Source of the DNA: a virus
Taxonomy: Duplodnaviria; Heunggongvirae; Uroviricota; Caudoviricetes
Length of the DNA: 19,706 nt
IMG/VR virus record: IMGVR_UViG_2617270940_000004
Span: 1 to 19,706 of that record
Reading direction: 5' to 3' (one strand)
Shown: piece by piece, positions 1,871 to 2,974 of the stretch
Layout of the letters: every line of letters begins with the position of its first letter
Position numbering within the stretch: the stretch's first letter is position 1
The notes under the pieces: generated by a model
The model's database searches: none
What the model was told of the DNA's origin: nothing
The model's input: only the letters and a program-made list of their open reading frames with translations
Translations under genes and position numbers: made by a program

Positions 1871-2974
1871 TTGTCTATCCTACTGAATCGAGACTTTACG
1901 AACGGTCAGTTTGCCAGTGGTTCGTATGCCAAAGTGGTTGAAACGGTGCTCAACACTGGCGTTCACGCGGGTGATCGCACCGGAACCGGCACAAAAAGTG
2001 TTTCATATGTCCCTTCCTACTACATGCTGACGGGCGGATCTGTTCCACTTATCTCCGGAAAAGCCGTCAATCTGAAGCCGTTACTGGTTGAGCTGGAGTG
2101 GTATCTCAAAGGAACAGGCAACATCCAGTTCCTGAAAGACAATGGCGTCAAAATCTGGGATGCCTGGGCCGATGAAAATGGCGATTTAGGCCCGGTCTAT
2201 GGCAAGCAATGGCGTCGGTGGGAAGACACTCGCATCGTGAGCCATAGCGAGTATCTGCGCAAAATCGACACGTTCCGTGAGCGCGGGTACAAGGTCGAGG
2301 GGTATCTGGGCGTAAGTGAAGATCGCGTTGTGTTGTCCCGTGAAATTGACCAGCTACAGCGTATCGTTGACACGCTTCGCACCAACCCTACAGATCGTCG
2401 CATCCTGCTGAATGCCTGGAATGTTGGCGAACTGGAAGATATGAAGCTGCCGCCATGCCATTTCGTGTTTTCACTGTGGAGTCGCGAGCTGGACTTTGAG
2501 ACCCGACTGACTATGGCCACCGACATTGGCATACAGCACAACCGCCACGGCCACGAGTCCATGTACACCCAGATGCTGTGTCTTCTGGAAAGAGATGGCG
2601 GCATTACTGAGAACATGCTGGACGAGCTGGGCATCCCGAAACGCATTCTGAACTCATGCCTGGTTCAACGCAGTGTCGATACCTTTGTTGGTATGCCGTT
2701 CAACATCGCCGGTTACGGCATTCTCACCCACTTCCTCGCGAAGATCACCGGCCACATGGCTGGCGCATTCGTGCATTTTGGCTTTGACGTTCATCTCTAC
2801 GACAACCACATGGAAGGCGTTGAGGAACTGATGAAGCGCGAGCCGCCCAAAGAGTCCGACCCGGTTGTCATCTTCCCGCATGAATGGGCCGAACTGGACG
2901 ACTTCAAATGGGAAGGTGTGCAGGTGTGCGGCTACAGCCCTCTTCCGTGGATCAAGGTTCCAGTGGCGGTGTGA
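1871..2974 (+). CDS. thyA: Thymidylate synthase family protein (ThyA homologue with two large insertions and an N-terminal extension)
   Basis: Contains [56 protein letters not shown] (catalytic Cys in PCH), [17 protein letters not shown] and HLYDNHM, all matching recalled E. coli ThyA blocks. Start uncertain: ORF track gives GTG 1859, but GAGG at 1860-1863 looks like the SD for TTG 1871 (TTG 1865 also possible). Confidence 0.85.
   Translation: [367 protein letters not shown]

Follow-up and report, generated by a model that had tools for sequence, protein, structure and literature searches.

The window, as the whole stretch of viral DNA that was analysed is called here, is 19,706 nucleotides long and carries on its plus strand a thymidylate synthase gene (thyA) flanked by further genes of putative nucleotide metabolism. 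A pyrophosphohydrolase gene and a hairpin resembling an intrinsic terminator are located upstream of thyA, and a phosphatase-like open reading frame (ORF), the dihydrofolate reductase (DHFR) gene dfrA51 and a kinase-like ORF follow downstream (Table 1). In terms of sequence similarity, the window is assigned to an SSU5-type phage-plasmid, with 98.8% identity to Salmonella phage SSU5 over the 2.2 kb around thyA. Similar sequence is found in 706 plasmid records, 679 of which cover at least 80% of the query. These plasmid matches are mostly from Klebsiella, Escherichia, Enterobacter and Salmonella, and those listed are mostly non-mobilizable replicons of ~100-130 kb. The best 20 of the 706 matches are annotated as thymidylate synthase.

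Table 1. Positions of the genes and features at the thyA locus, in window coordinates.
Feature	Position	Strand	Description	Basis
MazG/PRA-PH-type nucleotide pyrophosphohydrolase (candidate)	812..1690	+	292 aa	PF01503, E 3.6e-9; phrog_671
Intrinsic-terminator-like hairpin	1753..1785	+	strong; 9-bp stem, then a T-run; separates the pyrophosphohydrolase gene from thyA	
Ribosome-binding site GAGG	1861..1864	+	6 nt before TTG 1871	Read from sequence
thyA CDS	1871..2974	+	367 aa, 1104 nt; TTG start, TGA stop at 2972-2974	ORF; RefSeq/SSU5 annotation
N-terminal extension	1871..1915	+	aa 1-15; Tyr19 aligns with E. coli Tyr4	Alignments
Insert 1	2222..2344	+	aa 118-158, net +34 aa; variable small domain, after QWRRW	
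Catalytic Cys196 codon	2456..2458	+	E. coli C146; PPCH motif	
Insert 2	2480..2647	+	aa 204-259, net +51 aa; tip of the beta-hairpin after the catalytic Cys strand	
Asn278 codon	2702..2704	+	E. coli N177; PFNIA; determinant of uracil, not cytosine, specificity	
HAD/PNKP-phosphatase-like ORF (candidate)	2976..3389	+	137 aa	PF25109, E 0.005 (below cut-off); phrog_5387, phrog_415
dfrA51	3386..3862	+	Trimethoprim-resistant dihydrofolate reductase, 158 aa	PF00186, E 1.7e-33
P-loop kinase-like ORF	3862..4506	+	214 aa; candidate dTMP/dNMP kinase	AAA_28, E 1.4e-9; phrog_2107 'thymidylate kinase', E 6e-10

The thyA reading frame is uninterrupted from a GTG at 1859 to position 2974, and this longest ORF begins 12 nt before the annotated start. 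In RefSeq (E. coli plasmid) and in SSU5, the orthologue is a 1104-nt CDS encoding 367 aa, which matches the TTG at 1871 and the coordinates given in the first-pass annotation. Klebsiella phage pJN2-26 (~77% nucleotide identity) has kept both the GAGG and the TTG start but not the upstream in-frame candidates GTG 1859 and TTG 1865, and TTG 1871 is therefore favoured as the start codon. With this start, the N-terminal extension relative to E. coli ThyA amounts to 15 aa, since 18 residues stand ahead of the position of E. coli Y4 in the alignment, compared with 3 in the E. coli enzyme. In the AlphaFold2 (AF2) model, the first four residues have a pLDDT below 50 and residues 1-10 a mean of 61. Helix A begins at residue 11 and is lengthened by residues 11-18.

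Family membership and active site of the synthase

On all features examined, the window protein belongs to the ThyA family. Its Pfam match to PF00303 has an E-value of 3.1e-79 (266.3 bits; cut-off 24.3), the equivalog model TIGR03284 is matched with 220.9 bits (cut-off 108.35), and phrog_160 'thymidylate synthase' aligns as a single stretch over aa 3-367, across both inserts. The E. coli-type equivalog models stay under their cut-offs (NF002497, 264.6 bits vs 327), because the inserts split the match. The core and E. coli ThyA share 45.7% identity in 256 aligned columns. AlphaFold2, run with a 69-sequence alignment, gave a model with a pLDDT of 94.1 and a pTM of 0.92, and the modelled core has the thymidylate synthase fold, with a Foldseek TM of 0.94 against E. 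coli ThyA (target-normalised). E. coli ThyA (264 aa; PDB 2TSC, 1TYS) covers ~68% of the query, with a query-normalised TM of 0.68. The flavin-dependent synthase ThyX was also considered and rejected, as PF00303, the ThyA family, is the sole Pfam match of the window protein. For the same reason, phage Cyrano, whose orthologous locus (79.6% nucleotide identity) bears the label 'ThyX', appears to be misnamed at this point.

The ThyA blocks quoted in the first-pass annotation are all present, namely the 23-letter block at aa 95-117 ([23 protein letters not shown]), PPCH with Cys196 and PFNIA with Asn278. Among the 25 catalytic or ligand-contacting positions checked, 24 are identical to E. coli ThyA, and the exception is I264, which is replaced by Val. 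The kept E. coli positions include R21, E58, W80, W83, Y94, R126, R127, C146, H147, R166, S167, D169, F176, N177, H207, Y209 and the V-A-[IV] C-terminus, and two further positions of no assigned role, C50 and H51, differ in the window protein. C196, H197, Y110 and E74, which align with E. coli C146, H147, Y94 and E58, are invariant in 69 relatives. In ThyA, which is an obligate dimer, the dUMP phosphate is held by four arginines, two of which come from the partner subunit. All four are present in the window protein as R36, R267, R176 and R177 (E. coli R21, R166, R126 and R127). The residues for folate binding and closure, I95, W96, W99, L193, D270 and F277 (I79, W80, W83, L143, D169 and F176), are also present, and the protein ends in a short tail, ...KVPVAV, of the V-A-[IV] type. 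Uracil versus cytosine specificity follows a rule involving Asn at position 177 and His147 (PMC8670742), and both residues are found here, as N278 and H197. The dCMP hydroxymethylases of the T4 gp42 type need an Asp in place of Asn177; the window protein has the Asn, and this candidate was rejected.

The phage dUMP hydroxymethylases and the T4 dCMP hydroxymethylase belong to the same superfamily as ThyA and use the same Cys nucleophile, and it had been suggested that the inserts could shift the specificity of the window protein to hydroxymethylation. As controls, SPO1 gp29 (annotated dUMP hydroxymethylase) and M6 gp58 (from a phage making 5-hmdU-derived bases) were used. Both exceed 264 aa as well (383 and 351 aa), and this shared length, together with a set of neighbouring genes that superficially resembles the pre-replicative 5-hmdU pathway (PMC8989533), speaks for a dUMP (or dCMP) hydroxymethylase feeding a modified-base pathway. 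In that reading the pyrophosphohydrolase, phosphatase-like and kinase-like neighbours would act as dTTPase, dTMPase and hm-dUMP kinase, as in SPO1-type phages. However, the controls are each only 20-22% identical to the window protein, which has the synthase version at every motif that separates them. They have PCN and GAN where the window protein has PCH and PFN, they lack the folate block ([14 protein letters not shown], IWDxWAD) that the window protein has, and they carry a C-terminal extension of ~60-100 aa (shorter in M6, longer in SPO1) where the window protein ends in P-V-A-V. Thus, the gp29-type motifs are not those of the window protein, which instead has PCH and [17 protein letters not shown] and ends in a short tail with PVAV. 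Neither control has an insert at either of the two insert sites, so their extra length is unrelated to that of the window protein. The functional DHFR encoded in the string with thyA is a further argument against hydroxymethylation. Among the hypermodification families, whose gene company has been described together with the features of the pre-replicative pathway (PMC8989533), neither 5-hmU DNA kinase, aGPT-Pplase nor any other hypermodification Pfam family was found in the 17 ORFs scanned, which cover the window up to its last ~2 kb. On the ~20% identity, the PCN/GAN motifs, the missing folate block and the different C-terminus of gp29 and gp58, the hydroxymethylase was rejected, and its probability is considered very small. 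The suggested shift in specificity was thus not borne out. The earlier leaning towards a genuine synthase was upheld, both by the 24 of 25 checked positions and by the DHFR of the string being a functional DfrA51.

The N-terminal extension and the two inserts

The window protein exceeds E. coli ThyA by 15 aa at the N-terminus, by 34 after W101 and by 51 in the hairpin at 155-157. HMMER aligns the two proteins in three collinear stretches, with unmatched gaps of ~38 and ~56 aa in the query. In a 271-sequence alignment, the W101-D110 interval contains 42 residues compared with 8 in E. coli (+34), and the F152-C161 interval 59 compared with 8 (+51). The first-pass annotation had described a ThyA homologue of ~370 aa, versus ~264 aa, with an N-terminal extension and two true internal insertions of ~30 aa after WRRW and ~50 aa after PCHFVF. 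This description agrees with the 367-aa CDS, the PF00303 match, the HMMER stretches and the measured +15, +34 and +51.

Selection on the extra parts was assessed with the Klebsiella orthologue, SSU5 being too close for an informative comparison, and pN and pS were used instead of dN/dS because synonymous sites are saturated at this distance. The pN/pS values are 0.10/0.77 for insert 2, 0.21/0.92 for insert 1, 0.21/0.72 for the N-terminal extension and 0.11/0.63 for the core. The low pN despite a saturated pS of 0.63-0.92 indicates that the extension and both inserts are maintained as protein, and both inserts are under purifying selection. Within both inserts the block-mean pLDDT of the AF2 model is 94-98.

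These data also bear on whether the extra length could be an artefact, produced by a frameshift, a wrongly assigned start, an intron or intein, or the decay of a pseudogene. In favour of such a reading, the longest ORF is 12 nt longer, which leaves an uncertainty of 4 aa in the exact N-terminus. Against it, the gene is one unbroken frame, and the synthase motifs flanking each insert share that frame. The inserts are also kept at the protein level despite saturated synonymous sites, are given a high-confidence structure by AF2 and have no significant Pfam match. In addition, 367-aa orthologues exist in SSU5, in Klebsiella phage pJN2-26 and on an E. coli plasmid, and similar sequence occurs in the plasmid records mentioned above. 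A mis-called start, frameshift or pseudogene is ruled out by the single frame, the constraint, the orthologues and the AF2 confidence, and the probability of any artefact is regarded as negligible. A mis-called start or a frameshift, named earlier as what would overturn the insertions, was not seen, and pJN2-26 supports TTG 1871.

Searches with the inserts alone, insert 2 as 59 aa and insert 1 as 45 aa, gave nothing significant among PDB sequences (best E 1.8), and among Pfam families a single sub-threshold match (Sedlin_N, E 0.008). From these null results, no imported domain, intein or endonuclease can be recognised in either insert. Their net charges are -1 and -4, with family medians of -2, and this mild acidity argues against nucleic-acid-binding inserts, a possibility that was rejected. 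Counted from the alignment, 260 full-length relatives comprise 130 with both inserts, 21 with insert 2 alone, 38 with insert 1 alone and 71 with neither. The two-insert architecture is common in phage enzymes and not peculiar to the SSU5-type element. The inserts were undescribed in the literature searched, which covered SSU5, pHCM2, and phage-plasmid and jumbo-phage thymidylate synthases.

Insert 1 consists of a strand, two short helices and two strands in the AF2 model, and it has a solved counterpart in the ThyA of Burkholderia thailandensis (PDB 3V8H). The site-1 pattern of 3V8H is found in the window protein, with a ~41-aa insert after QWRxW that contains RG[FY] ... V-L-x-x-x-IDQL. This Burkholderia enzyme, of the long bacterial type, shares the enlarged small domain and leaves 79 query residues unaligned. 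The separate long-ThyA model NF010393 of NCBIfam (323-aa profile) also spans the insert-1 site, and the long-ThyA equivalog NF002496 (318 aa) is under its cut-off (209.6 vs 325). The synthase of Lactobacillus casei presumably has a ~50-aa insert at the same small-domain site. The small domain is highly variable between organisms and contains five helices in the Enterococcus faecalis enzyme (PMC6479881). This E. faecalis synthase (~315 aa) has an enlarged small domain like the window protein, but its small domain is helical, whereas insert 1 is modelled mostly as strands. With 5J7W, the E. faecalis structure, the TM is 0.67 and the query coverage is no better than with the E. coli synthase. Insert 1 is the enlarged small-domain variant known from Burkholderia ThyA, and both inserts are very probably surface additions typical of the lineage, with no effect on the chemistry.

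Insert 2 is modelled by AF2 as three helices (209-225, 231-242 and 247-253) between the long strands 197-206 and 258-270. Its conserved anchors are [ST]RE[LM]xxxER and LDxxxIPxRxL, and in distant carriers of the insert Pro256 is found in 93% and Arg212, Asp251 and Arg258 in 70-76% each. The stretch between the anchors is highly variable in sequence and ranges in length from 28 to 85 aa among relatives, and the version of the SSU5 clade is enlarged. A solved counterpart was not found by Foldseek, in which no PDB chain covers more than ~70% of the query; solved thymidylate synthase structures reach query-normalised TM values of 0.68-0.70. Predicted structures in BFVD cover more of the query, with 0.79-0.86 on the same normalisation for one viral protein and the synthases of two jumbo phages, Pseudomonas phage 201phi2-1 and Erwinia phage Yoloswag; a range of 0.83-0.86 is given for jumbo-phage carriers. 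Among isolated phages, insert 2 occurs both in phage-plasmids of the SSU5 type and in phages of large or jumbo size; for the latter, tblastn with insert 2 and short flanks as the query gave 29-35% identity (E 2e-6 to 9e-4). The carriers include the Pseudomonas phages 201phi2-1, Phabio, BRkr and Viktualia, and the Erwinia phages listed with an insert-2 synthase are Yoloswag, EarlPhillipIV, Derbicus and Phobos; Flavobacterium 'immuto' phages carry it as well. Several of these jumbo- and large-phage synthases are longer (457-471 aa), with extra additions, and their overall identity to the window protein is 24-31%. Two metagenomic carriers are located on phage-like contigs of 104 kb and 356 kb, and on both contigs no DHFR adjoins the synthase. 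Insert 2 defines a clade of phage thymidylate synthases that is large and extends from phage-plasmids to jumbo phages.

As to its position, the strands of Cys196 and Arg267 form the hairpin, and insert 2 would begin ~8-9 residues along them from these two active-site residues, which places it at the far end of the hairpin. From the register of the strands and the known fold of the synthase dimer, it would project from this end at the rim of the inter-subunit (dimer) beta-sandwich. It is unlikely that insert 2 reshapes the active-site pocket; most likely, it is a structural buttress or a docking surface and not a specificity element. A more specific proposal is that insert 2, alone or together with insert 1, is a docking or regulatory module of an otherwise normal synthase, which recruits partners of dNTP synthesis, such as the phage DHFR, kinase or ribonucleotide reductase, or tunes dimer or half-site behaviour. 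The T4 dNTP-synthesising complex is a proposed precedent for such tethered enzymes of nucleotide metabolism. The conserved anchor residues, a protein-level constraint equal to that of the core and the confidently folded three-helix unit of the AF2 model all fit this proposal, as does the fact that the carriers with examined context are phages or phage-like contigs bearing other nucleotide-metabolism genes. On the other hand, the neighbours differ between the SSU5-like elements and the metagenomic contigs, so that no constant partner is evident, and the variable middle of the insert fits a tolerated surface expansion. The proposal is regarded as rather unlikely; if true, insert 2 would be the first defined accessory domain of phage ThyA common to phage-plasmids and jumbo phages.

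Gene neighbourhood and the proposed dTTP-supply module

The thyA gene heads a translationally coupled string of four ORFs, in the order thyA, phosphatase-like ORF, dfrA51 and kinase-like ORF. Here, thyA and the phosphatase-like ORF are separated by a 1-nt gap, the latter overlaps the DHFR gene by 4 nt, and the DHFR gene overlaps the kinase-like ORF by 1 nt. The tight coupling to DHFR noted in the first-pass annotation holds for the chain as a whole, but thyA and the DHFR gene are not direct neighbours, with a 137-aa ORF between them. The DHFR matches the NCBIfam model trim_DfrA51 with 354.6 bits (cut-off 322). Overexpression of DfrA51 of SSU5 in E. coli has been shown to raise trimethoprim resistance (PMC12217456), and thyA is absent from the text of that paper.

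The roles of the pyrophosphohydrolase, the phosphatase-like and the kinase-like proteins are candidate assignments based on weak similarities. The pyrophosphohydrolase is weakly similar (E 0.001) to the MazG-like DR2231, a dUTP-specific enzyme. The kinase-like protein resembles solved nucleotide kinases at the level of the P-loop only. The 137-aa phosphatase-like protein matches Pnkp1 (4XRP) with an E-value of 7e-5. The place of this ORF within the dTMP-synthesis string is not accounted for by the proposed dTTP pathway and counts against it.

In Photobacterium ganghwense, the order PRA-PH, ThyA, HAD, DHFR, AAA_28, one ORF and exonuclease is kept, and the string is preceded there by NrdA and NrdB. 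Since this gene order is kept at only 53% ThyA identity, a coherent dTTP-supply module can be argued. In such a module, the upstream MazG-like pyrophosphohydrolase would probably convert dUTP to dUMP and so supply the substrate of the synthase. By the established ThyA mechanism, Cys196 would attack C6 of dUMP, and methylene-tetrahydrofolate would donate the one-carbon unit and then a hydride, yielding dTMP and dihydrofolate. DfrA51, which is encoded two genes downstream in the coupled string, would recycle dihydrofolate to tetrahydrofolate, and the P-loop kinase-like protein encoded downstream would probably phosphorylate dTMP. Together, the pyrophosphohydrolase, ThyA, DfrA51 and the kinase-like protein may thus form a self-contained dTTP supply for phage DNA replication.

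As a whole, the locus is very probably best explained by a predicted functional thymidylate synthase of the ThyA type (EC 2.1.1.45), which is encoded on an SSU5-type phage-plasmid, carries inserts that are neutral to its chemistry and takes part in a dTTP module. The synthase function is not new, since the annotation of homologous loci in plasmids and phages already names thymidylate synthase. The under-described part is the insert-2 architecture, which is without a solved structure or a description in the literature searched. Enzymatic or genetic tests of the window protein or of its insert-2-bearing relatives were likewise not found in this literature.

Significance of the coupled thyA and dfrA51 genes

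On these phage-plasmids, which occur widely in Klebsiella, Escherichia, Enterobacter and Salmonella, thyA is hard-wired to dfrA51. Because thyA is coupled to the trimethoprim-resistant DfrA51, the elements would carry a complete, drug-insensitive thymidylate cycle. Such a cycle could influence the antifolate responses and the thymine-auxotroph phenotypes of the hosts. In addition, insert 2 offers a tractable case for the question of why metabolic enzymes of phages gain conserved surface modules.

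Left end of the window and loss of nrdA and most of nrdB

The window starts with IS1 sequence, whose InsA ORF matches two Pfam families. Position 378 is the first base homologous to SSU5 and to the 99.9% identical plasmid pYUXYEH3934-1. Given these InsA matches and homology that begins only at this position, the SSU5_077 homologue in the window copy is interrupted by an IS1 insertion. In addition, compared with SSU5, the window lacks a segment with nrdA and most of nrdB directly 5' of the pyrophosphohydrolase gene, and pYUXYEH3934-1 shares this deletion. The lineage of the window and this plasmid has lost ribonucleotide reductase and retained the thymidylate genes.

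Features at the left end of the window and around thyA
Feature	Window position	Strand	Size	Evidence or detail
IS1	1-377			InsA ORF 47-322 (-), Pfam PF03811 and PF12759
Deletion vs SSU5	667-691 vs SSU5 sequence (L001) 4509-7987		~3.45 kb	Sequence comparison
Pyrophosphohydrolase	812-1690	+	292 aa	PRA-PH match, aa 42-106
Terminator-like hairpin and T-run	1753-1785	+	9-bp stem	5 G-C pairs
DHFR, DfrA51 type	3386-3862	+		NCBIfam DfrA51 model above cut-off

Genes and signals flanking thyA

The pyrophosphohydrolase encoded upstream of thyA is about twice the size of a typical MazG-like protein, and C-terminal to its PRA-PH match a weak second MazG/DR2231-like similarity is found at approximately aa 177-226 (Pfam MazG-like, E 0.04). 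The doubled size and this second region suggest a tandem two-domain pseudo-dimer. Between this gene and thyA lies a strong terminator-like hairpin followed by a T-run, and a search from the hairpin to the thyA start gave no consensus sigma-70 promoter. Two genes 3' of thyA, the DHFR scores 354.6 bits against a cut-off of 322 with the model for DfrA51, a trimethoprim-resistant DHFR. Overexpression of the SSU5 copy of this DHFR increases trimethoprim resistance in E. coli (2025; PMC12217456); the linked thyA is not mentioned in that paper.

Naming and large insertions among ThyA relatives

In Escherichia phage Cyrano, the locus orthologous to thyA (OV696614.1 72607-74659, nucleotide match H23, 79.6% nucleotide identity) is annotated as 'ThyX Thymidylate synthase'. 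Since the only Pfam family matched by the orthologous window protein is PF00303 (ThyA), which is unrelated to ThyX, this label looks like a naming error. Outside the window, the insertion point after the QWRRW block (site 1) is a hotspot at which very large segments (127-274 aa) are inserted in frame in metagenomic ThyA homologues (P0133, P0168, P0170, P0201, P0205, P0215, P0216, P0220, P0231, P0246 and P0255). Several of these insertions share the motif ...YGG[RKQ]GV.V...W..F..F..., and they look like entire inserted domains.

A related block in Photobacterium ganghwense

The entire SSU5-like replication and nucleotide block is also found in Photobacterium ganghwense (Vibrionaceae), on a 2.03 Mb replicon (L009, CP071326.1 800763-821824), with genes for SbcCD-like proteins, NrdAB, PRA-PH, ThyA, HAD, DHFR, a kinase-like protein, an exonuclease, a methyltransferase and RNase H. 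Possibly, this block is a relative of the SSU5 phage-plasmid family that has integrated.
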